Below are positions 1,240 to 11,852 of a DNA stretch of 26,334 nt, piece by piece. The translations under genes were made by a program, and so were the position numbers. The stretch's first letter is position 1, and every line of letters begins with the position of its first letter. Origin of the DNA: an uncultured bacterium (lineage in GTDB: Bacteria; Patescibacteriota; Minisyncoccia; Phycocordibacterales; GWA1-40-21); NCBI GenBank assembly GCA_903824735.1, contig CAIJXO010000109.1:1-26334 (forward strand), in the 5' to 3' direction. The notes under the pieces are model-generated. The model saw nothing but the letters and a program-made list of their open reading frames with translations. It did no database searches and was not told the origin of the DNA.

Positions 1240-1758
1240 ATGTCTCTTACATTAAAAACAAAGTCCGCTAACTCGCAAAAGGGTTTTACCCTTTTGGAAA
1301 TCTTGTTGGTGGTGGCCATTATCTCTATTTTGGCCGGTATCGTCATCTTGGCGATTAACCCCACCAAACAGCTTGGTGATACACGAAACGCTCAGCGTCG
1401 TTCTGATGTGCTTACGATTTTAAACGGAGTTTATCAGTTCGCTTTGGATAATGATGGCGACCTACCTACGATTCCAGCCATAAGTACAAGCTGTGTGGCA
1501 GATGCAGATGCAGAGATCTGTCAAAATGATTCTACTGACTGTGAGGGTGGCAGTAATGTAGACTTATACACTGACCTTGTCGCTGGAGGGGCTGATGGGA
1601 CTGGCTCCAACTATCTTGTCAGTATCCCTCGCGATCCAGAGGTGGCAAGTTCTACATCGGACGGTACTGGTTATAGTATTGTCCAGCTCCTTAATGGCCG
1701 TGTTACTGTCTGTGCTCTTGCCCCGGACAACAATGCCGAGATTTCCGTCACACGTTAG
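1240..1758 (+). CDS. Type IV pilin, probably the major pilin
   Basis: Class III signal QKG|FTLLEILLVVAIISILAG with Glu5; RNAQRRSDV helix; YLVSIPRDP motif; first gene upstream of pilB. Confidence 0.9.
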   Translation: MSLTLKTKSANSQKGFTLLEILLVVAIISILAGIVILAINPTKQLGDTRNAQRRSDVLTILNGVYQFALDNDGDLPTIPAISTSCVADADAEICQNDSTDCEGGSNVDLYTDLVAGGADGTGSNYLVSIPRDPEVASSTSDGTGYSIVQLLNGRVTVCALAPDNNAEISVTR

Positions 1759-1814: not shown

Positions 1815-3509
1815 ATGTCTTTAAGTTTTGAAAAATTAAAAGAAATATTAGTTGACGGCGGTCATGTCGATGAGAACAGCTTTAATAAAGCTGTTCTTGT
1901 TGCCAATAAAAAAGCCGACCCCATCGAGGTTTGTCTCGTTAAGGCCGATTATATTACTGATGAAAAACTTGGCGAAGTCGTGGGGAAGTTCTTCGGTGTT
2001 CCCTTTAAGGATCTGAAAGAAGAGAATATTCAGAATGATTTACTCGAGATGATTCCTGAAGTTGTCGCTCGTACTCAAGGCGCGATAATCTTTACAAAAG
2101 AAGCTGATGGCTATGGTCTCGCCACCTCCAATCCGACAAATTTTGAATTTATCAAGCATGTCGACCAGATTGCTGACGGCAAGCTAGTAGTTTATTATTC
2201 GACCCCGATTGGCATGACCGAGGCTTTCAAAGCTTACAAGAACAATATTTTTAAAAATGTCGTCGACCTAGTCGATGGTTACAAATTACATAAAAACGAG
2301 AACAATATTGTTCTTTTGGTAAATCAATTTTTGGAATACGCTTACGATAGTGGGGCATCAGACGTGCATATTGAGCCTCTGTCTGATAATCAAGTCTCGG
2401 TCCGTATGCGTGTGGATGGTATTTTGAGTGAAGTAGTTCGCTACCCACTGGATATTCACGAGAAGGTTGTCTTCCGCGTTAAAATCATGTCGCATTTGCG
2501 TACAGATATGAAAGACGCCACTCAGGACGGCCGTTTTGAATACAAAACTGACGGTATGCAGTTTGATGTCCGTGTCTCTATTTTGCCGGTGACGAACGGT
2601 GAGAACTTGGTGTTCCGTGTTCTTTCTGAAAGGACAAAGAAAGTCGTGCTCGAAGATTTGGGCTTGAATGACTTTGACTTGGCGAAAGTAAAACGCGCCA
2701 TTCTTCAGCCTTACGGTATGATTCTCGTGGTGGGTCCGACTGGTGCTGGTAAAACCAATACTCTATATTCTTTGATTCAAATTCTCGCGGCTCAGCCGAT
2801 AAATATTGTGACGATCGAGGATCCAGTAGAATACAGTATTTCTCGCGTTCAGCAGATTCAAGTCAACGTCAAGAAAAATATTACTTTCGCTAACGGCCTT
2901 CGCTCCATCGTTCGTCAGGACCCCGATGTGATCATGGTGGGAGAAATCCGCGATAATGAAACCGCTTCGATTGCCGTGAACGCGGCGATGACCGGACACC
3001 TTTTGTTCTCGACTTTGCACTCAAACGATGCCGCCACAATTTTCCCGCGTTTGCTTGAGATGGGTATCGAGCCTTTCTTGGTTGCTTCCTCGATCAACAT
3101 TGTCATGGCTCAGCGCCTGGTGCGAAAGATTTGTCCACATTGTCAGGTAAATTATCCGAAGACGGCCGCTGATGTGCCGGAGATAGTAGCTCTTGAGAAA
3201 AACCCAAGCTTTACAAACATGATGAAGAAGTTTTTCCCAGGTAAGAAACTTTCGGATATTAAATTGTTTAAGGGAACTGGTTGTAAAACCTGTAAGCATA
3301 GCGGTTACCTCGGTCGTCTTGCCGTCTTTGAAGTGATGGAGGTAAACGACAGCATTCGTTCACTGATTAGTGTCAAATCATCATCTTCTTCGATTGAAAA
3401 TAAGGCCGAAGAGAATGGCATGACTCCGATGTTTTTCAACGGTCTTGTGCACTTATTTAGTGGACGGACTACTATGGAAGAACTCGAGGGTTTGTCTAAT
3501 GTCGACTAA
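1815..3509 (+). CDS. pilB: Type IV pilus assembly ATPase (PilB/GspE family)
   Basis: ASDVHIEP, RMRVDGIL, QDGRF, Walker A GPTGAGKT, TIEDPVEY, RQDPDVIMVGEIRD, TGHLLFSTLH, and Zn motifs CPHC...GCKTC..GYLGR. Confidence 0.93.
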   Translation: MSLSFEKLKEILVDGGHVDENSFNKAVLVANKKADPIEVCLVKADYITDEKLGEVVGKFFGVPFKDLKEENIQNDLLEMIPEVVARTQGAIIFTKEADGYGLATSNPTNFEFIKHVDQIADGKLVVYYSTPIGMTEAFKAYKNNIFKNVVDLVDGYKLHKNENNIVLLVNQFLEYAYDSGASDVHIEPLSDNQVSVRMRVDGILSEVVRYPLDIHEKVVFRVKIMSHLRTDMKDATQDGRFEYKTDGMQFDVRVSILPVTNGENLVFRVLSERTKKVVLEDLGLNDFDLAKVKRAILQPYGMILVVGPTGAGKTNTLYSLIQILAAQPINIVTIEDPVEYSISRVQQIQVNVKKNITFANGLRSIVRQDPDVIMVGEIRDNETASIAVNAAMTGHLLFSTLHSNDAATIFPRLLEMGIEPFLVASSINIVMAQRLVRKICPHCQVNYPKTAADVPEIVALEKNPSFTNMMKKFFPGKKLSDIKLFKGTGCKTCKHSGYLGRLAVFEVMEVNDSIRSLISVKSSSSSIENKAEENGMTPMFFNGLVHLFSGRTTMEELEGLSNVD

Positions 3510-3512
3510 ACT

Positions 3513-4565
3513 ATGTTATTTCGAAAAATCTCACAAGATGAGCAAATCAACTTCGCCAAGAATCTCTCCGTTTTACTCCGCGGTGGTGTTTCGATTAATG
3601 AAGCAATCGATTCATTAGCCAATCAGGCTAAGCCAGGTTTATTGCGCGACGTCTTGTTCCGTTTTAAAGCCCGTCTTGAAACTGGTACTTCTTTGGCATC
3701 AGCGATCAGTGAAGAGGGGGAGCTTTTTGGCAAAGTTTTCGTGAGCTTGGTCCAAGCCGGAGAAATGTCTGGTGCTTTAGCGGACAATCTAGAATTCTTG
3801 TCAGTTTGGCTTGAGCGCGATAGTCGCTTACGAAAAGATATTAGTGGCGTTTTGCTTTACCCCAAGATTGTGCTTGCGGCGGTTGTCTTACTTGGTGGCG
3901 CTTTGACGATTTTTATCTTACCAAAATTGATCCCGATGTTTACTAGCCTTCATGTCAAATTACCGCTGATTACCGTTATTTTACTAAAGATTTCCGTCTT
4001 CAACCAGCAATATTGGCCAATGGTCCTGGCGGGTATCTTCTTAATCTGGATTGCCATTTACTTTATTTTCAAAGTCGAGAAAATGAAGTTCATCTATCAC
4101 CATGCTCTGGTGAACATGCCTTATGTCAAAGAATTTGTCATTGGCTATCAGCTCGCCCTATTCTCTCAGCTCATGGGTACACTTCTGCGTAGCGGTATTA
4201 CGATTGATGATGCGCTTGAAATCGCTTACGTCGGTACAGCTAATCTTTATTTCAGGAAAGCCTTACGTAATATTATTGATGGTGTCAGAAGAGGCGACTC
4301 GCTGGTGCTATCGATGAAAGAGTATCCAGAACTTTATCCAGTCAACTCGATGAGCGTGCTTGCCGTCGGTGAAAATAGCGGAACGCTTGAAGAATCTTTT
4401 TTCAAGGTCTCCGATTTTTGGACTAAAGACATTTTGGATAAAACAAAAATGCTACCGACGATTATCGAGCCAGTCCTCCTTGTTATAATTGCTTTGGCCG
4501 TGGCCTTTATCGCTCTGTCGATTATTATGCCTATCTACAAACTGACAGGCGGCCTCGGTGTTTAG
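3513..4565 (+). CDS. pilC: Type IV pilus platform protein (PilC/GspF family)
   Basis: Two T2SSF-like repeats (LSVLLRGGVSINEAI; AGEMSGAL..NL; LYPKIVL; VGENSGTLE; IEPVLLVII..MPIYKL) with TM helices. Confidence 0.92.
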   Translation: MLFRKISQDEQINFAKNLSVLLRGGVSINEAIDSLANQAKPGLLRDVLFRFKARLETGTSLASAISEEGELFGKVFVSLVQAGEMSGALADNLEFLSVWLERDSRLRKDISGVLLYPKIVLAAVVLLGGALTIFILPKLIPMFTSLHVKLPLITVILLKISVFNQQYWPMVLAGIFLIWIAIYFIFKVEKMKFIYHHALVNMPYVKEFVIGYQLALFSQLMGTLLRSGITIDDALEIAYVGTANLYFRKALRNIIDGVRRGDSLVLSMKEYPELYPVNSMSVLAVGENSGTLEESFFKVSDFWTKDILDKTKMLPTIIEPVLLVIIALAVAFIALSIIMPIYKLTGGLGV

Positions 4566-4580
4566 TAATTTAAAATATTC

Positions 4581-5054
4581 ATGAATAAAGGTTTTACTTT
4601 AATTGAGCTTTTATTGGTCATCGCAATTATTGCTATTTTGTCTTATCTCGCAGTGCCGATTGGTATGAACTTTTATCGTTCACAAACCGTGGAAGGCGCA
4701 CGATCTCAACTCATTGAATCTTTAGGCCGCGCTCGTCGTAACGCCGTACTTATGAAAGCTGACAGTCAATATGGCGTCAAGATACTTTCAGCTGACGGCG
4801 AGCTTACAAGTTTCACCTTATATAAAGGCGAGGTATATGATAGTAGTCGGGATGAGACCTATGATGAAGTGTATGCCCAAGCTCCCAATATGACTATATC
4901 TTTTAGCGGTACAGATGAATTAGTATCTGGAGACATTAATTTTGCTAAACTAAGTGGAGCCACGGAAGCCATGGGAACTATTACTGTCACGCACGACGGG
5001 GGAGAAAGTCGAAGTATTATAATTGATGATTTTGGCAATGCTTATAAAGAATAA
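4581..5054 (+). CDS. Minor pilin (FimT/GspH-like)
   Basis: NKG|FTLIELLLVIAIIAIL; ARRNAV; YGVKI; INFAKLSG...ITV...IIIDDFG pattern. Confidence 0.85.
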   Translation: MNKGFTLIELLLVIAIIAILSYLAVPIGMNFYRSQTVEGARSQLIESLGRARRNAVLMKADSQYGVKILSADGELTSFTLYKGEVYDSSRDETYDEVYAQAPNMTISFSGTDELVSGDINFAKLSGATEAMGTITVTHDGGESRSIIIDDFGNAYKE

Positions 5055-5481
5055 AAAACAGGGCTTTAGTTTACTCGAATTGTTACTTACAATTGCGATT
5101 TTTTCCGTGGTTTCCATGGGCGCCGGCTATCTGATTATCGACGCGACAGTGACGACAGATGTTAATACCAAAAAGATCTCCGCTACGCTCTTGGCCAAAG
5201 AGGGGCTCGAGGCCGCTCGTTCTATTAGGGACGACCAAGGCTTTGACCATCTCGACATTGGGAGTGATAACGGGGTCGTGTTTGATGAGACAGATAATAT
5301 CTGGGGATTTAATGGTGATTCGTCCGACACGTCTGTGGATAATCTATATACAAGGGTTGTCAGTGTCGATAGTGTGTCAGGCCTAGGTTATATCAAGAAA
5401 ATTACGAGTACGGTCACCGCCGTGAGTGGCCTGAGAAACATTTCGGTTACTTTAGTAACTTATCTGACTGATTGGCGATAG
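5038..5481 (+). CDS. Minor pilin (PilV-like)
   Basis: KQG|FSLLELLLTIAIFSVV; ATLLAKEGLEAARSIRD; YTRVVSV...KKITSTVT...VTLVTYLTDWR. ATG 5038 is preferred over TTG 5023. Confidence 0.85.
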   Translation: MLIKNKKQGFSLLELLLTIAIFSVVSMGAGYLIIDATVTTDVNTKKISATLLAKEGLEAARSIRDDQGFDHLDIGSDNGVVFDETDNIWGFNGDSSDTSVDNLYTRVVSVDSVSGLGYIKKITSTVTAVSGLRNISVTLVTYLTDWR

Positions 5482-5514: not shown

Positions 5515-5724
5515 ATGCCGATGCAAAAGGGATTTACATTATTTGAGGTTCTGATATATGTCGCTATTTTGTCTGTGATCTTATATTTTGTCGGTGGTTT
5601 TGCTTACAATATATATATGGGTAAAGATAAGATCGAAGCGATTCAAAAGGTAAATGAAAACGGGCGTTTTATGCTCGACACGATAAGCGACTATGTTGAA
5701 AAAGCAACTGAAATTAATATCTAA
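5515..5724 (+). CDS. Truncated minor pilin (PilW-like), N-terminal alpha1 helix only, 69 aa
   Basis: QKG|FTLFEVLIYVAILSVIL...IEAIQKVNENGRFMLDTISDYVEKATEINI*. It stops where the globular domain should begin. Confidence 0.82.
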   Translation: MPMQKGFTLFEVLIYVAILSVILYFVGGFAYNIYMGKDKIEAIQKVNENGRFMLDTISDYVEKATEINI

Positions 5725-5728
5725 AAAG

Positions 5729-8700
5729 ATGTTTTTTAAAAAAGGATTAAAATTATTTATTCTTGGAGCGGGAATCTTTTTACTGTTTTTACTTTCGTCT
5801 TACGGTACAGCCTCAGCCGCTACATATTACTGGGTTGGTAATTCTGATAACAGCGGAGTCACGAGTGTAAATACTAACTGGAATACCAGTGCCGTGGCCT
5901 GTGGTACAACTGGAAACAAAATTGCCGCCTTCACCACTTCAGATATTTTAAATTTTACCTCTACCTGTACCAGTAATGCGGCGATTGATGCAAACTTATC
6001 TATCGCTACTTTTACGATGTCGGCTGGCTATTCAGGCGCCGTTACCCAAAATGCTGGCATCACTCTGACAGCCTCTACTGCCTTTTCACAAGCCGCGGGG
6101 ACTTTTAATGGCAGTGCGGCAGCTATTTCTTTAGGATCCTTTACTCAAACTGGCGGGACTTTTAACTCTACCTCGGGGACATTGACTATTACCCGAGATG
6201 GAACAGTTTGGACTCATGTGTCTGGTCAGGGAACTTTTGTGCCTGGTTCTGGAACTGTATCATTTGGTAATGGTACAGGTGCCGTGAACCCGACGATCAA
6301 TGCGACTGGAGAGACTTTTTATAACTTAACGCTAAATGAGTTAACAAATATTAACTTCTTGACCGTAACCGGAACTATTACAGTTAACGGTACTTTACTA
6401 AACACAAAAGGATATATCAAGACTGGAACAGTTAATGCTAAAGGTCCAGTGACATTTGCTTCGGCGTGTGGAGGGGTAGTTGCTTCAGCCTCAATTGTTG
6501 CTAATGGTACAACAGCTGCCCAGGTTGTTACATTTGGGGGTGGGACGTCCTGGGTTCCAAATATTACTATTAACAACGCTTCTGCCACCGTCGTCTATAA
6601 CGGCACTACCACTTTTGCTTCTTTAACTTTAACTGCGTTTTCTGGGACTTTTGATCTTGGTGTATATCCATTAACCATGAGTGGTACTGGCGCTTTTTCA
6701 CAAGCTGGGGGGACTTTTAATGGAGGAACCGCGACTATGACAGTAGGATCTTTTACTTTAACGGGTGGAACTTTCAATTCAACTTCTGGGACATTAGCCA
6801 TTGGATCAAATGGTACAAACTTTACACATGTGGCAGGTCAGGGTACTTTTAATCCCGGATCGGGAACAGTCTCTTTTACGGGTGGTGCCTTCAATAACAT
6901 AATTAATGCTACGGGGGAAACTTTCAATAATTTAACCGTTAACCTGTCAAGTACCAACAATACTGTTACTGTCACTGGTACTATCACAGTAAATGGAACC
7001 CTTACTTATTTGAGAGGCTTAATTACAAGTGGTATTGTCCAAGCCAAGGGCCCAGTCGTTTTTACTTCTGGGGCGAGTGTGGTTGGAACCGCGACACTTT
7101 TAGTCAACGGTTCCGGGGCTCAATCTGTCACTTTTGGGGCTGGTTCTTTTGTGGGGAAGCTTACCATTAATAATGCTTCTGCCACCGTGGTCTATAATGG
7201 TGCTTCCACTCTCGCCTCATTAGATATTGCCAACGGTACATTTGCCTTGGGTGGAAATAATATAACCGTCGCTTCAAATTTTATTGTGGGACCATCGGGA
7301 AATTTTAAACGCTATGGTAATGAGACAATTACTACTACGCCCCCAAGTTTTAGTGCCGGCTCAACGGCGACTTACAATGGAACAGCCGCTTCTTATACTT
7401 TACCGAATTATACTTATACTAATGCTCATGTAATCATCGACGCACCTTCGGCCGATACGGTCTATAATTTGGCTGCCAATTTATCCTCGACAGATCTCAC
7501 TGTTGCCTCTGGGGTTTTGAACCAGCGTAGCTACTCAATTACAAATAGTGATACTATCACCATCGCTTCCACGGGTTCATGGATGGGCACTTCGACCGGT
7601 GCTGTTACGATTGGTACGGGGGGCGTCTCAAATGCCGGTAGCATAAGTCTTATCTCACCAACTTCCATTTTAATCCGCTCGACGGTGACAGGAGCACAGC
7701 GACCTTGGGTCGGTCTCGGTTATTATGGTATGACCGGTGTCGATGTAAAAGATCAAGGTGGTACTTCACCAATTACGGTCTACGGCGGTATTCATAGTGG
7801 TAATAATGATGTGAATTGGTATTTTTCTGATATACCGACTTCACCAGATCGAATCTGGAAAGGGCAAACCTCTGCTCTATGGAGTGTGGCGAGCAATTGG
7901 TTTGAGGGATCCGTGCCGGCAAGTACTAGTAATGCTATTTTCTCAGCCTCATATAAGAATCCAGCCACATTTGATGCGAATGCGACAAGCCCGGCCAATG
8001 TTATAATTAATTCTGGGTATACTTCGACGGTGACCTTAGCCAAGAACATGTCTTTGACAGCCTTTACTCAGAGGGCGGGGACTTTTAATGCAAGTAGTTA
8101 TAATTTTACAACGACTGGAAATCTCTCACAAACTGCGGGTACTTTTAGTGGTGGTTCTGGGGTCATTGATATTGGCGGAAACCTTACTGTCTCGGGTGGA
8201 ACTTTTACTCCTTCAACTGCGACCACTTCTGTATTTGGTAACTTTGATTCGACTGGCGGTACGATAAGTGCTAGTGCTGGTACTATAGACTTTGATGGTG
8301 GAAGTCAGACTATTACTGGTACTACTACTTTTTACAGTTTAAATAAAGTCGTTTCTTCCGCCGCAAACTTGATATTTGGCGCTGGGCAGACTTTCACGGT
8401 GATGGGCACCACTACGCTTCATGGTTCATCGGGACAGCTTTTGACTATCAAATCTTCTTCGACTCCGGCCCAATGGATGTTTGACCCGCAGGGCGGTCTA
8501 GACTTGGCCTATGTCACAGTCAAGGATTCTAATAACATTAGTTCATCCACCACTGGATTATATCCGACAATCAGTGCAAATAACTATGTTGGTATAACTG
8601 ATGGCACTAACAATACTAACTGGACTTTTACTTTGCCGACCATCACTATTTCGGCCACAGGAACACAGGCCACCTCGACCCCACTGCCCGCTTCAACATA

Positions 8701-10090
8701 TATGGGGGGAGCTTTCCAAGCCGTCTCAAATATCGGCATAAATTCTATCACTTCAATATCTTTAACTCAATCTGGGTCACTGTCGACAAGTCAAATCAGC
8801 TCGGTTAAAATTTACTATAAGGAGTCTGCGGCGGGAATCTGTTATGCTGGCACGGTATTTCCTGCTGGTACAACACTTTTTGGTACCGGTACAGTCTGGT
8901 CACAAAACAAAGTTACTCTTAATGGCACAATGTCAGTCGGCACAAATCCCGTCTGCCTTTATGTCATATTTGATCTTACTGGTACTGTATCTTTTGCCAA
9001 TTTATTTTTTGATGTGGATTTACAAATTATTGATCCCGTCAATGATATTACTTCCGACCAAGTCACTGTCTTGCCATCTACTCCCGTAGACATTACCGGT
9101 GTCACAATGATTGTCGGAGGGTCAAGTGGATATCCGACAATTAGCTTTAGTGCAGCTAGTACCTCTGTGTCCACCGTTTCGGGTAGTACTACATTAAGCT
9201 GGAGTACTGGGTATTATCCGCACACCTGCACTGCTTCAGGTGATAATGGTACTGGTGGTGAGTGGATAACTGGCACATCACTCAATACTACTTCTGGCTC
9301 GGCTTTAACCGGCGCTCTTACCGCACATCGCTCTTACGTTTTTACAATTACTTGTACAAACAATATTGGCTCTACAGTTGCCAGTGTGAGCGTTGTTGCG
9401 ACAAATCCCAATGCCCCGATTTTGACATTTAGCGCAAATCCGACAAGTGTCGCCTCAGGTACCGCTTCAAGATTAACCTGGACACTTGGTGGTGGCCCTA
9501 TCAATGTGCCCACATCTTGTCTCGCTTCAAACGCTTGGAGTGGAAATCCAGCCGTTGACGGGGGGACTTATGACACCCCTGCTTTGACCTCAAACAAGAT
9601 ATATACGTTAGCTTGTGGTAACTCTTTCGGTACTACCACTCGATCTGTCGGCGTCTCGGTTATCGGCGAGCCAGCCGAGCCAGATACTTGTGGTCCGGAC
9701 TATTACTGGGTTATCAGAGGTACACCATGTACAACAGGTGGCGGCGGAGGTGTGGGGGGAGAAATTGGCGATGCTTTTTCTTTAACAATGGAGGATGAAT
9801 CCATAAATCCAACTGTCTTTTACTTCTGGAATAATGGAGCCAACACTTCACTTTATATGAGACAAGGTGCTGATGGTCCAGATCAAATCGTCAAGAAGTT
9901 GACGGCCGATGGTTTAAATATTACCGCGGGGAATTTTACCGGTTTGAATTGTGTGAGTGGTAGTACAAAATGTAATGGTGTGAAAATACATATTGATTTG
10001 GAAAAGAGGGGGATAGATGGGAGTCTACAAAACTATACAATAGAAAAAACCTTCAAGACCACCGTCAACAGTAGAACAAATAATAATTAA
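5729..10090 (+). CDS. Large secreted adhesin-like protein (~1453 aa): beta-helix-like repeats, Ig/PKD-like domains and a C-terminal minor-pilin-like half domain
   Basis: Signal peptide MFFKKGLKLFILGAGIFLLFLLSSYGTASA; T/G/S/N-rich GGTF repeats; W.G...NW caps; two SW...C.AS..W...LT....Y...C Ig-like units; a Gly linker, then SLTMEDESINPTVF...KTTVNSR. ATG 5729 lies 4 nt after the stop of the short pilin. Confidence 0.8.
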   Translation: MFFKKGLKLFILGAGIFLLFLLSSYGTASAATYYWVGNSDNSGVTSVNTNWNTSAVACGTTGNKIAAFTTSDILNFTSTCTSNAAIDANLSIATFTMSAGYSGAVTQNAGITLTASTAFSQAAGTFNGSAAAISLGSFTQTGGTFNSTSGTLTITRDGTVWTHVSGQGTFVPGSGTVSFGNGTGAVNPTINATGETFYNLTLNELTNINFLTVTGTITVNGTLLNTKGYIKTGTVNAKGPVTFASACGGVVASASIVANGTTAAQVVTFGGGTSWVPNITINNASATVVYNGTTTFASLTLTAFSGTFDLGVYPLTMSGTGAFSQAGGTFNGGTATMTVGSFTLTGGTFNSTSGTLAIGSNGTNFTHVAGQGTFNPGSGTVSFTGGAFNNIINATGETFNNLTVNLSSTNNTVTVTGTITVNGTLTYLRGLITSGIVQAKGPVVFTSGASVVGTATLLVNGSGAQSVTFGAGSFVGKLTINNASATVVYNGASTLASLDIANGTFALGGNNITVASNFIVGPSGNFKRYGNETITTTPPSFSAGSTATYNGTAASYTLPNYTYTNAHVIIDAPSADTVYNLAANLSSTDLTVASGVLNQRSYSITNSDTITIASTGSWMGTSTGAVTIGTGGVSNAGSISLISPTSILIRSTVTGAQRPWVGLGYYGMTGVDVKDQGGTSPITVYGGIHSGNNDVNWYFSDIPTSPDRIWKGQTSALWSVASNWFEGSVPASTSNAIFSASYKNPATFDANATSPANVIINSGYTSTVTLAKNMSLTAFTQRAGTFNASSYNFTTTGNLSQTAGTFSGGSGVIDIGGNLTVSGGTFTPSTATTSVFGNFDSTGGTISASAGTIDFDGGSQTITGTTTFYSLNKVVSSAANLIFGAGQTFTVMGTTTLHGSSGQLLTIKSSSTPAQWMFDPQGGLDLAYVTVKDSNNISSSTTGLYPTISANNYVGITDGTNNTNWTFTLPTITISATGTQATSTPLPASTYMGGAFQAVSNIGINSITSISLTQSGSLSTSQISSVKIYYKESAAGICYAGTVFPAGTTLFGTGTVWSQNKVTLNGTMSVGTNPVCLYVIFDLTGTVSFANLFFDVDLQIIDPVNDITSDQVTVLPSTPVDITGVTMIVGGSSGYPTISFSAASTSVSTVSGSTTLSWSTGYYPHTCTASGDNGTGGEWITGTSLNTTSGSALTGALTAHRSYVFTITCTNNIGSTVASVSVVATNPNAPILTFSANPTSVASGTASRLTWTLGGGPINVPTSCLASNAWSGNPAVDGGTYDTPALTSNKIYTLACGNSFGTTTRSVGVSVIGEPAEPDTCGPDYYWVIRGTPCTTGGGGGVGGEIGDAFSLTMEDESINPTVFYFWNNGANTSLYMRQGADGPDQIVKKLTADGLNITAGNFTGLNCVSGSTKCNGVKIHIDLEKRGIDGSLQNYTIEKTFKTTVNSRTNNN
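6080..7230 (+). repeat. Tandem intragenic duplication, two ~200-aa units
   Basis: AFSQAAGTFNG (6080) and AFSQAGGTFNG (6692) are 612 nt apart. The units share GGTFNSTSGTL, GQGTF.PGSGTVSF, INATGETF.NLT, VTGTITVNGTL, AKGPV.F and TINNASATVVYNG. Confidence 0.85.
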
Positions 10091-10095
10091 TCATA

Positions 10096-10539
10096 ATGAA
10101 CTATCAAAAAGGCTTTATTGCTCTCATCACTATACTCTCAGCGAGTGCGATTGCTCTTTTGATTAGTTCTACTATTTTACTGAAATCTGTTACGGAGGCG
10201 ACTTATAGTATAGATGAGGAATCGTCGGCCAAAGCCTGGGCGACGGTCAATGCTTGTGGTGAATATGCTTTATATAATCTGGCGAGTACGACAAATAGCG
10301 GTGGTAGCGAATGGTATACTTTTAATTCTGCGGGGGACGGCATGTCATTAGATATTGGTGATACTGAACATTCGTGCTATATTTATACTATCGTAGGTAC
10401 TACGGTAAGCACCTCGAGCCCACGGATAATTCACGCTTCGAGCACGGTTAACAACTTCACTCGCAAGCTGTCAATTACCGCCGCAACGAATACACCATCG
10501 GTTATTGTTAGTTCGTGGTCAGAAGTGGCAGATTTTTAA
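10096..10539 (+). CDS. Minor pilin (PilX/GspK-like, no Glu5)
   Basis: QKG|FIALITILSASAIALLISS lacks Glu5; A.ATVNACGEYAL.NL; CYI; HASSTVNNFTRKLSI; SSWSEVADF. Confidence 0.8.
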   Translation: MNYQKGFIALITILSASAIALLISSTILLKSVTEATYSIDEESSAKAWATVNACGEYALYNLASTTNSGGSEWYTFNSAGDGMSLDIGDTEHSCYIYTIVGTTVSTSSPRIIHASSTVNNFTRKLSITAATNTPSVIVSSWSEVADF

Positions 10540-10547
10540 AATATTTT

Positions 10548-11852
10548 ATGGCCTTTAAAGATAAGTTAAAAGAGACATTAACCATCAAGTTTGATAAAGC
10601 CTTCGGCTTGGATATTTCCGACCGCTCGGTGGAAATTATTGAACTTGAAAAAGTCTTTCGTTTTTCCGTGACTACTTATGGACGCGAGGAGCTACCAGCT
10701 GGAGTAGTGGAGAATGGTAAAATTGTCGATGCTAATGCTCTGGCTTTAAAGCTTAAAACTCTTTTGAAGGAGGTTAAACCGAAGCGCGTCTCGACCAATA
10801 AGACGATTATTTCTCTTCCCGAAACTCAAGTTTTTATCGAATGCTTTACAATCGAAGCTACTTTGAAGTCAGCCGAGCTCAATCAAGCCATTCTCGACAA
10901 GATATCGACGATTTTACCACTTAATCCCGACAAGATGTATTGGGATTTTATTCGCAAGCCACTGCCCGATAAGACAAAAGCTTTGATTATTTTTGTCGGA
11001 GTACCGCGTGATATTGCGTCTGGTTATGTAAAATTCTGTAATTCAATCGGTCTTGAAGTTGTATCACTTTCCGTCGAATCCTTAAGTCTAGCCCGAGCCA
11101 TTTTAAAGAAAAGCGATCGTCAGAGTCTGATTATGGATATTGGTACTTTATCTACTAGTCTGAATTTCTTTGACAGTAATGACTGTGCTCAAATGTCAGT
11201 TATAATTCCAATGGCCGGACAGAATTTTACAGATGCTATTAAGGCTAAGCTTAACATCGAGCCAGCTGATGCCGACGAGCTAAAGGCTAAGTTTGGCTTC
11301 AAAAATGGTTCGGAGAATAATATTAAAAAAGTTGTTTTACCAGTACTAGACGAGATGATGAAGGAGGTCAAAGCAGCTATTAGTTACTATGAGGAGAATT
11401 TTAAGCAAAAGCTCGACGATGTCTATTTGATTGGTGGATCAGCCTTGATGCCGGGGATTGCTGAGGAAATTAAGTTGCGAATAGATCGACCAATTCAAAT
11501 TGCTGAAAGCGGTCATAATATCAGTCTAAAATCTTTGACCGGTAAGGCGGGGAATAGTTTCCCTTTGTTTGCAAACGTAATCGGACTTGGTATGCTCGGT
11601 GCGAGCGGTGAATTCCAAGATATCAATCTTTTAAAGAAGATGCCAAGAGCTGAGGTAAACGCAATCGATAAACTTAATCTTTTTAAACTCGGCTATTTAA
11701 GTAAAGTGAATACCGTTCGCGCAGTTTTTAATAACAAATATGTTTTGATTACGGTTATTATCTTAATCGGCGTGATTTTTGCTGTTCTCCTCCAGCAAGC
11801 CAAGAATTTTGGTTATGCGTCAGTTTCTTCTTCGGTCACTGCTGGTTTTTAA
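10548..11852 (+). CDS. pilM: PilM (actin-like pilus assembly protein) with C-terminal INLL motif + TM extension
   Basis: FGLDISDRSVEII, ISLPE, IMDIGT, VYLIGGSALMPGI and IGLGM, followed by DINLL and a hydrophobic helix YVLITVIILIGVIFAVLL. ATG 10548 is preferred. Confidence 0.82.
   Translation: MAFKDKLKETLTIKFDKAFGLDISDRSVEIIELEKVFRFSVTTYGREELPAGVVENGKIVDANALALKLKTLLKEVKPKRVSTNKTIISLPETQVFIECFTIEATLKSAELNQAILDKISTILPLNPDKMYWDFIRKPLPDKTKALIIFVGVPRDIASGYVKFCNSIGLEVVSLSVESLSLARAILKKSDRQSLIMDIGTLSTSLNFFDSNDCAQMSVIIPMAGQNFTDAIKAKLNIEPADADELKAKFGFKNGSENNIKKVVLPVLDEMMKEVKAAISYYEENFKQKLDDVYLIGGSALMPGIAEEIKLRIDRPIQIAESGHNISLKSLTGKAGNSFPLFANVIGLGMLGASGEFQDINLLKKMPRAEVNAIDKLNLFKLGYLSKVNTVRAVFNNKYVLITVIILIGVIFAVLLQQAKNFGYASVSSSVTAGF

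Follow-up and report, generated by a model that had tools for sequence, protein, structure and literature searches.

In the type IV pilus operon of an uncultured bacterium of the Patescibacteriota (GenBank assembly GCA_903824735.1, contig CAIJXO010000109.1; the 26,334 nucleotides analysed are called the window below, and coordinates refer to it unless another locus is named), a minor pilin is encoded in two pieces by consecutive genes: a 69-residue open reading frame (ORF) at 5515-5724, and the last ~110 residues of a putative giant adhesin encoded at 5729-10090. As judged from profile alignments and from the structural model of an intact relative, the short ORF and the adhesin tail are the two halves of one minor pilin. 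We consider it likely that a minor pilin of the GspJ/PilW class underwent fission in the loop between strands β1 and β2, and that its two products reassemble into one pilin that displays the adhesin body at the pilus tip; our confidence is high for the anatomy of the split and moderate for the mechanism.

Homology of the two pieces to one intact pilin

The short ORF opens with the signal MPMQKG/FTLFE, with Gly at position -1, Phe at +1 and Glu at +5, and is recognised by Pfam N_methyl (E 1.5e-7, passing the family cut-off) as well as by TIGR02532 (2.1e-4). Its basic leader ending in Gly, hydrophobic α1N segment and Glu+5 are those of a type IV prepilin, and the machinery for such a prepilin, namely PilD together with the assembly ATPase and platform genes, is encoded in the same genome. 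A first-pass annotation of this DNA, made by a model from the letters and ORF translations, had described the ORF as a class III signal and helix α1 followed by a stop. That description holds, with the refinement that strand β1 (ATEINI) is also present: the ORF stops right after β1 with a TAA at 5722-5724, which is followed by the 4-nucleotide spacer AAAG and the ATG of the adhesin ORF at 5729. The β-sheet head of a pilin was not found within the short polypeptide and is located at the C-terminus of the next gene.

That gene (5729-10090, 1453 residues, with an alternative ATG upstream at 5693) has the layout that the first-pass annotation gave it, and its own Sec-type signal, its Gly linker at 9737-9760 and its ~110-residue tail were confirmed in both coordinates and sequence. 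The N-terminus consists of a Lys-rich n-region and a hydrophobic core that leads into TASA/ATYYW; six orthologues share this n-h-c signal layout followed by A(T/Q)..YW(V)G, and a second subfamily has a variant form. After the Gly run the tail starts SLTMEDESINPTVFYF and finishes TFKTTVNSR.

Searched by phmmer against 1.84 billion representative proteins, the last 119 residues returned ten matches at E <= 0.001; the seven inspected were the query and six proteins of 135-1706 residues (three with incomplete N-termini), matched always at their extreme C-terminus, and the tail-bearing proteins with a complete N-terminus open with a Sec-type signal. A profile of the tails (alignment A1) run against 301 genomes of the same order matched 14 other genomes, always in open frames of 156-200 residues; at least 13 of these frames encode intact minor pilins that carry a class III signal, and the match covers their C-terminal halves. 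In profile-profile comparison (hhalign) the tails align with 12 intact pilins (alignment A2) at a probability of 99.1% (E 5.8e-19), with tail columns 19-127 on pilin columns 78-175 and both C-termini reached. The adhesin's C-terminal residues are therefore, as the first-pass annotation had proposed, alignable end to end with pilin globular domains. Three short pilins (alignment A3) match the same intact pilins at 98.7% (E 3.6e-16) over columns 9-75, the helix half; with one match ending at column 75 and the other starting at column 78, the two abut.

Within the genome itself, a hidden Markov model (HMM) of the intact pilins searched against 7285 ORFs of at least 40 residues has the short ORF as its top match (5.8e-19, model positions 4-69) and the adhesin tail as the sole ORF matching positions above 75 (2.6e-8, positions 78-168, significant with filters off, since the default bias filter of hmmsearch hides the tail in Thr/Ser/Gly-rich giant proteins); the full model is covered in this genome only by the pair. 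The likeness to PilW-like minor pilins that the first-pass annotation had pointed to is thus real. Profiles were needed because P0003, an intact paralogue of the split pilin in the same genome, is too divergent for BLASTP, which gave nothing significant with it against either the tail or the short ORF; a word-indexed search with the tail among long proteins returned the query alone. Where intact and split forms are more alike, motifs are directly shared, as between intact pilins such as that of locus L014 and the split pair of G682, a genome that belongs to the same class but to a different order (...NRQEY..E(K/R)T(F/Y)YTTANIRK).

An AlphaFold2 (AF2) model of an intact relative (predicted local distance difference test, pLDDT, 90) has a helix at residues 8-62, β1 at 63-68, β2 at 78-82 and five more strands. 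Set against this relative, ATEINI of the short ORF falls on AEVINN (β1) and SLTM of the tail on SLSLQM (β2); since the short ORF ends after β1 and the tail begins at β2, the break lies in the β1-β2 loop.

The remainder of the giant protein is far less recognisable. Pfam and NCBIfam searches of all 1453 residues matched no family, Foldseek with the adhesin model gave generic matches to multidomain ectodomains of immunoglobulin (Ig) and fibronectin type only, and a look-up of the adhesin body in the ESM Atlas gave no usable match. The N-terminal part is rich in Thr, Ser, Gly and Asn, and may be β-helical, as its composition and the Beta_helix Pfam match of a single homologue suggest. The AF2 model of residues 700-1453 (8-row alignment, mean pLDDT 63) predicts a β-solenoid segment at ~735-919, a conserved β-sandwich module at ~990-1130, two Ig-like domains at ~1137-1311 and a linker of ~40 residues (1311-1352, with the Gly run) at pLDDT <40. 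In this model of the adhesin alone the tail is all-β with no helix, and its β2 segment is disordered in the absence of a partner. A foreign base composition of the gene was considered and not seen, its GC content being 0.43-0.465 against 0.38-0.45 elsewhere in the profiled region, and strain-level variation occurs within it, with T>C at position 5836 in contigs of two of four lake-water runs. For annotation such pairs call for caution: the 69-residue gene resembles a truncated pseudogene, and the giant ORF shows no recognisable domains.

Recurrence, selection and origin of the split

An assembly indel at the junction would have overturned the first-pass annotation, but Logan contigs from three lake-water runs cover the junction (5618-5751, 5548-5758 and 5694-5937) with no indel; the three runs are probably from the same study as the metagenome-assembled genome (MAG) and only partly independent of it. 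Independent loci carry the same arrangement. In L007 and L008 (Joint Genome Institute and Logan data), short pilins of 74 and 75 residues stand directly before tail-bearing proteins of 1706 and 1657 residues, with full synteny to RNase J; in G682, an 83-residue short pilin precedes a 489-residue Sec-signal protein with the tail; and in L048-L052 the tail-bearing proteins have 1904, 1492, 1150, 1670 and 321 residues, in the order short pilin, Sec-signal protein, PilX-like gene, PilM. All nine loci inspected, from at least two orders, thus read short pilin, signal-peptide protein (321-1904 residues) ending in the tail, PilX-like gene, PilM. The junction-spanning contigs and the independent loci rule out an assembly artefact.

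The spacing between the two ORFs varies from -26 to +34 nucleotides across the nine loci and their relative frame is +1 or +2, with no slippery motif conserved, which leaves no conserved recoding site; together with the Sec signal that follows each junction, the variable frames and spacings rule out recoding into a single chain.

A profile search for the short protein gave about 30 database clusters of 67-83 residues, and also two closely related intact pilins of 139 and 143 residues. Across an alignment of 33 short pilins Glu+5 is invariant, Gly-1 is kept in at least 90%, and every short sequence stops 0-7 residues past β1. The ratio of nonsynonymous to synonymous substitution rates (dN/dS) of the short gene is 0.09 (L007 against L008) and 0.19 (window against L007), and that of the adhesin body 0.14-0.26; synonymous sites are close to saturated in both. 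These values place the short gene under purifying selection. A pseudogene remnant is ruled out by these ratios and by the conserved short-pilin alignment, and the pattern is not the one-off with relaxed selection that would have refuted the first-pass annotation.

Scanning the contigs of genomes found the pair in one other GTDB representative only, a MAG labelled Candidatus Saccharibacteria whose adhesin runs past the contig end, and a scan of metagenome contigs for the split pair gave no match; among ~700 species representatives of the class, the split form occurs in 2 and detectable intact or modular homologues in about 44. When pilin heads are placed in a tree, the tails of eight adhesins group as a single clade (98/88) within the intact pilins; the G682-type tail has no firm placement there, and this head-domain tree fits one or two fission events. 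A single fission is favoured because the break point is identical and the module preceding the tail is shared; to judge from these sequences, it would have been followed by diversification of the N-terminal body. The pre-tail module and tail are common to all family members (P0016 and P0010 are 40% identical over 285 residues, 1e-58; P0016 and the window adhesin, P0002, are 33% identical across the pre-tail module, 7e-16). The N-terminal bodies vary: P0006 and P0009 carry LamG and L051 Beta_helix, and those of G682 and L052 are small and non-repetitive. The swappable adhesin cassette of the first-pass annotation is supported only in part, namely in that these bodies are so unlike in size and in the domains they contain; actual exchange is a conjecture. 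Divergence of short pilins and of tails is correlated (Mantel r 0.72, p 2e-4; within one subfamily r 0.73, p 0.009).

Some related loci depart from these arrangements. At L050:7227-8228 a 333-residue gene with RhuM and Fic domains lies between the short pilin gene and the 1150-residue adhesin gene, and may be a mobile or toxin-like insertion into an otherwise tight gene pair. In other genomes of the class (L036, L040, L041, L042 and L044), the PilW-like family also has single-chain modular members, built as a pilin with Ig-like repeats and a Hint-like C-terminus (611 residues) or a pilin with a tail-fibre-like C-terminal region (about 480-500 residues), and in one case carrying an extension of ~130 residues. 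At L033:2057-3214 (minus strand) a repeat protein of β-propeller appearance (G..G.I..Y.G..W motifs) lies, in another genome, directly upstream of an intact PilW-like pilin and may be a separate tip-adhesin candidate.

The J position in the pilus operon

The class of the split pilin was read from both fold and gene order. Compared by VIA-align with 48,161 PDB chains, the model of an intact relative, used in place of the split pair, gives Z-scores of 10.6 with TTHA1219, 9.9 with XcpW (GspJ), 8.8 with EpsJ and 8.4 with GspJ, as well as 8.6 with the pilin module of Streptococcus sanguinis PilB and 5.2 with ComZ. Foldseek of the intact-pilin model against the PDB gave no significant match, and the NCBIfam gspJ equivalog TIGR01711, for which the family is too divergent, matched neither the short ORF (P0001) nor the tail. 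The minor pilin genes starting at 4581 (GspH-like), 5023, 5515 (with the tail) and 10096 (without Glu5) form an H-I-J-K row whose order is kept in nine loci, and ORF, Pfam and NCBIfam searches of the window found no other GspJ-class gene in the operon. The GspJ-class fold, the gene order and the Glu5-less pilin downstream together indicate that the split pilin holds the J (PilW) position; the PilW slot assigned to it in the first-pass annotation is accordingly retained, with XcpW, EpsJ and GspJ at Z 8.4-9.9 and the PilX/GspK-like gene downstream.

The features of the operon, called by ORF, Pfam and NCBIfam searches, are as follows.

1240..1758, plus strand: first gene of the operon, for a pilin of 172 residues with a class III signal that is probably the major pilin (Pfam N_methyl, 3.6e-8)
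1815..3509, plus strand: PilB-type extension ATPase (Pfam T2SSE, 1.6e-116)
3513..4565, plus strand: PilC platform protein (Pfam T2SSF, 1.8e-47)
4581..5054, plus strand: GspH/FimT-like minor pilin of 157 residues (N_methyl, 1.6e-7; best NCBIfam match GspH, below cut-off)
5023..5481, plus strand: minor pilin in the PilV/GspI position, about 140-152 residues, start uncertain (N_methyl, 1.2e-7; class from position only)
5515..5724, plus strand: short pilin of 69 residues, with the class III signal, helix α1 and strand β1 of a GspJ/PilW-class minor pilin, then a stop
5729..5818, plus strand: predicted Sec-type signal peptide of the adhesin, 30 residues, cleavage ASA/AT (read from the sequence by eye)
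5819..9658, plus strand: adhesin body, residues 31-1310 (AF2 of residues 700-1453; no Pfam match)
9659..9757, plus strand: flexible linker, residues 1311-1343, with two Cys and the Gly run at 9737-9760 (pLDDT <40; unconserved in tail alignment A1)
9758..10090, plus strand: pilin-head tail, residues 1344-1453 and stop codon, strands β2-β7 and no helix (hhalign to intact pilins)
10096..10539, plus strand: PilX/GspK-like minor pilin without Glu+5 (GFIALI...; from sequence, with orthologues 3' of the adhesin gene in all loci inspected)
10515..11852, plus strand: PilM-type assembly protein with a C-terminal transmembrane (TM) extension (Pfam PilM_2, 6.8e-27)

The genome that holds the window contig (C109) is 739 kb in 119 contigs and 87% complete, a size typical for the Candidate Phyla Radiation (CPR)/Patescibacteria, and the metagenome runs that contain the window sequence are from lake water. 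The first two minor pilin ORFs overlap by 32 nucleotides (5023-5054) if the TTG at 5023 serves as the start; the real start of the second is probably a later codon right before KKQGFSLLE. The PilM_2 match spans residues 31-340 of the 445-residue PilM ORF, whose short TM-containing extension lies at 11619-11852, and no pilN or pilO comes after it. A promoter-like site is found at 1166-1195, upstream of the operon-head pilin gene; the promoter and terminator scan as such was uninformative, with counts at the level of shuffled sequence. The prepilin peptidase PilD is encoded on contig C52 of the same genome (Peptidase_A24, 2e-32), within a second minor-pilin cluster (L002) that also includes the intact paralogue of the split pilin, of 210 residues, and a 662-residue pilin-like ORF lies at C11:1582-3567. 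The second cluster and this ORF suggest that the organism probably makes more than one pilus type, like reports for Nanosynbacter.

A proposed two-chain pilin, its alternatives and its known relatives

We propose that, following gene fission of a J-class minor pilin in its β1-β2 loop, the 69-residue product would be cut by PilD after Gly6, with α1N anchored in the membrane and later in the pilus core, and with α1C and β1 exposed outside. The 1453-residue product would be exported separately via Sec; on the outside of the membrane its C-terminal ~110 residues, a six-stranded sheet, would pack on α1C and pair with β1, so that two chains together form a whole pilin fold. As one subunit they would fill the J position of the H-I-J-K minor-pilin initiation and tip complex. 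The β-helix/Ig-like body, tethered by the flexible linker of ~40 residues where the loop had been, would thereby be presented as an adhesin at the tip of the pilus. Processing by PilD and by the Sec pathway, docking, incorporation into the pilus and adhesion are steps that we infer.

The docking step of the first-pass annotation gains support from a controlled complex prediction and stays an inference from modelling: over three runs the short pilin and the tail have a median interaction prediction score from aligned errors (ipSAE) of 0.64, while the best of three controls scores 0.00. Such a value is seen in 58 of 80 solved complexes and in 2 of 110 mismatched pairs, counts that are rough since own alignments were used. 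The predicted interface comprises short-pilin residues 39-69 (α1C and β1) and the whole tail sheet including FSLTMED, as would be expected from fold complementation.

Several points weigh against this proposal. The two-chain reading comes from genes and predicted structures; the complex score expresses the model's own confidence, and a single fold that has been split would be expected to score well whether or not the contact is used in the cell. The correlated divergence of the two genes is likewise expected for adjacent, co-inherited genes and is no proof of contact, the predicted Sec cleavage site was judged by eye only, and the role of the giant protein as an adhesin is deduced from how it is built and from what such proteins do in other pili. 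In L009, moreover (L009:3-2124), a minimal 369-residue tail-bearing protein (P0010) is preceded by a 72-residue TM protein (P0015) that lacks a class III signal with Gly-1 and Glu+5, so that pilus incorporation may not be universal in the family. P0015 has an hhalign probability of 0.2 with the short pilins, and the contig ends at the gene start; this partner may be a plain membrane-anchor variant. Downstream of P0010 in the same locus lies a Glu5-less PilX-like pilin with an additional Ig-like C-terminal domain (P0018).

The L009 arrangement would suit an alternative in which the tail does bind the short pilin, yet the two remain membrane-bound, anchoring the adhesin, and are never polymerised into a pilus. 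We regard this as unlikely for the split pair of the window, because the 33 aligned short pilins all have Glu+5 and nearly all have Gly-1, and because in nine of nine loci the pair sits between GspH/GspI-like and GspK-like pilins in the J position, with no other J-class pilin in the operon to complete the initiation complex. If instead the short ORF were a non-functional relic, the adhesin would use its tail alone, for instance to bind other minor pilins, or would need no short ORF, and the tail alone does model as an ordered sheet (pLDDT about 63-80). About 30 divergent clusters would, however, hardly keep a relic intact, all ending at one point and with the processing residues conserved, nor would a relic show a dN/dS of 0.09-0.19 with saturated synonymous divergence; the disorder of the β2 segment in the adhesin-alone model and the predicted binding of the pair argue in the same direction, and we consider this explanation very improbable.

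Least credible of all is the synthesis of one polypeptide through programmed frameshifting, read-through or an assembly indel, with the adhesin body as an insert in the pilin head as in ComZ, GspK and CpaL. Single-chain pilins with large inserts or C-terminal modules do exist, both in the same class (L036, L040-L042, L044) and in the literature; yet each of the nine junctions has its stop codon and then a gap or overlap of variable length and frame without a conserved slippery motif, contigs from three runs cross the window's junction unchanged, and the full Sec signal peptide after every junction would become a misplaced second TM segment upon fusion. The two-chain pilin with its body at the pilus tip thus remains our preferred reading. 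We also lean, somewhat less firmly, towards its generalisation into a split-pilin plug-in system, in which a socket of helix plus one strand would be delivered via PilD and varied adhesins (321-1904 residues; LamG, β-helix and Ig modules) via Sec would supply the rest of the fold. If this is true, episymbiont lineages could shift their host-attachment specificity by remodelling the N-terminal body of one gene, and the pair would be the first case of most of a pilin fold, not one strand, being supplied in trans.

Such completion of a pilin sheet by another protein has precedents. In PilC, PilY1 and MshQ the last ~10 residues complete the sheet of a K-class pilin (PilX/PilK) in trans, and CpaL and GspK do so in cis (Ellison et al., PNAS 2026, PMC13533445; Yount et al., mSphere 2026, PMC13711793). 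Like PilC, PilY1 and MshQ, the protein described here is a large non-pilin adhesin candidate encoded in a minor-pilin operon and apparently exported alone. Its extreme C-terminus is predicted to bind a minor pilin and may complete the sheet of that pilin in trans, as in those systems, where this ties the adhesin to the tip and initiation complex. Unlike PilC/PilY1, which add one strand to a whole K-class pilin, it would complete a J-class helix-plus-strand stub with ~110 residues and six strands; its tail moreover derives from the pilin gene itself, and it has no PilY1/PilC propeller, the Pfam Neisseria_PilC/PilY1 propeller having no match in P0002 or its homologues and the C-terminal part of P0002 modelling as solenoid, β-sandwiches and pilin sheet. 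With ComZ (Thermus thermophilus, PDB 6QVI), GspK and CpaL/TadG it would share a bulky module that leaves from a sheet loop and a sheet built from both sides of the insert; those proteins are single chains behind one class III signal, whereas in the split form a break falls where the insert begins and the second part carries a Sec signal of its own.

Modular pilins with C-terminal modules are known from S. sanguinis PilB and PilC (PDB 7B7P) and Nanosynbacter lyticus PilX1 and PilX2 (PMC11623550; bioRxiv 10.64898/2026.10.06.756255). In these, Saccharibacteria-type episymbionts included, a minor pilin carries an adhesive module, as the split pilin would; but in the known cases the module follows a complete pilin, whereas in the split form the adhesin comes before the head and a gene of its own encodes the helix. 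A single-chain modular pilin is not what the loci encode, a stop, a spacer and a new Sec signal separating the parts in nine of nine. In the donor-strand complementation of chaperone-usher pili a strand from another chain completes the fold, which makes a very stable non-covalent link. The split pilin would similarly complete an incomplete fold; it differs in fold and machinery, and in being a split of one subunit as opposed to one strand exchanged between like subunits.

Type IV pili are the main known tool of CPR/Patescibacteria episymbionts for finding and holding their hosts, and the way in which such pili bear large adhesins is just beginning to be understood. A full-text literature search for split, bipartite or two-chain pilins gave nothing relevant, and the recurrence of the split in every related locus examined suggests that the pair is probably a hitherto undescribed means of attaching a large adhesin to a pilus. 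The undescribed display mode that the first-pass annotation thought possible is thus probably right for this fission-based form, but is not a wholly new principle, given the in-trans strand addition by PilC/PilY1 (PMC13533445): new here are the gene fission, the J-class partner, the six-strand complementation and the second export signal, and the principle of in-trans sheet completion is already known. Because a single class has split members of this pilin family next to intact and C-terminally modular ones, the evolutionary origin of the arrangement is visible, and short pilin and tail may serve as a marker pair for pilus-tip adhesins in uncultured genomes where Pfam is blind. The pair would provide a natural, testable example of fold complementation across two export routes, PilD and Sec, and would extend the in-trans rule for tip adhesins to a J-class minor pilin and to a whole head instead of one strand.

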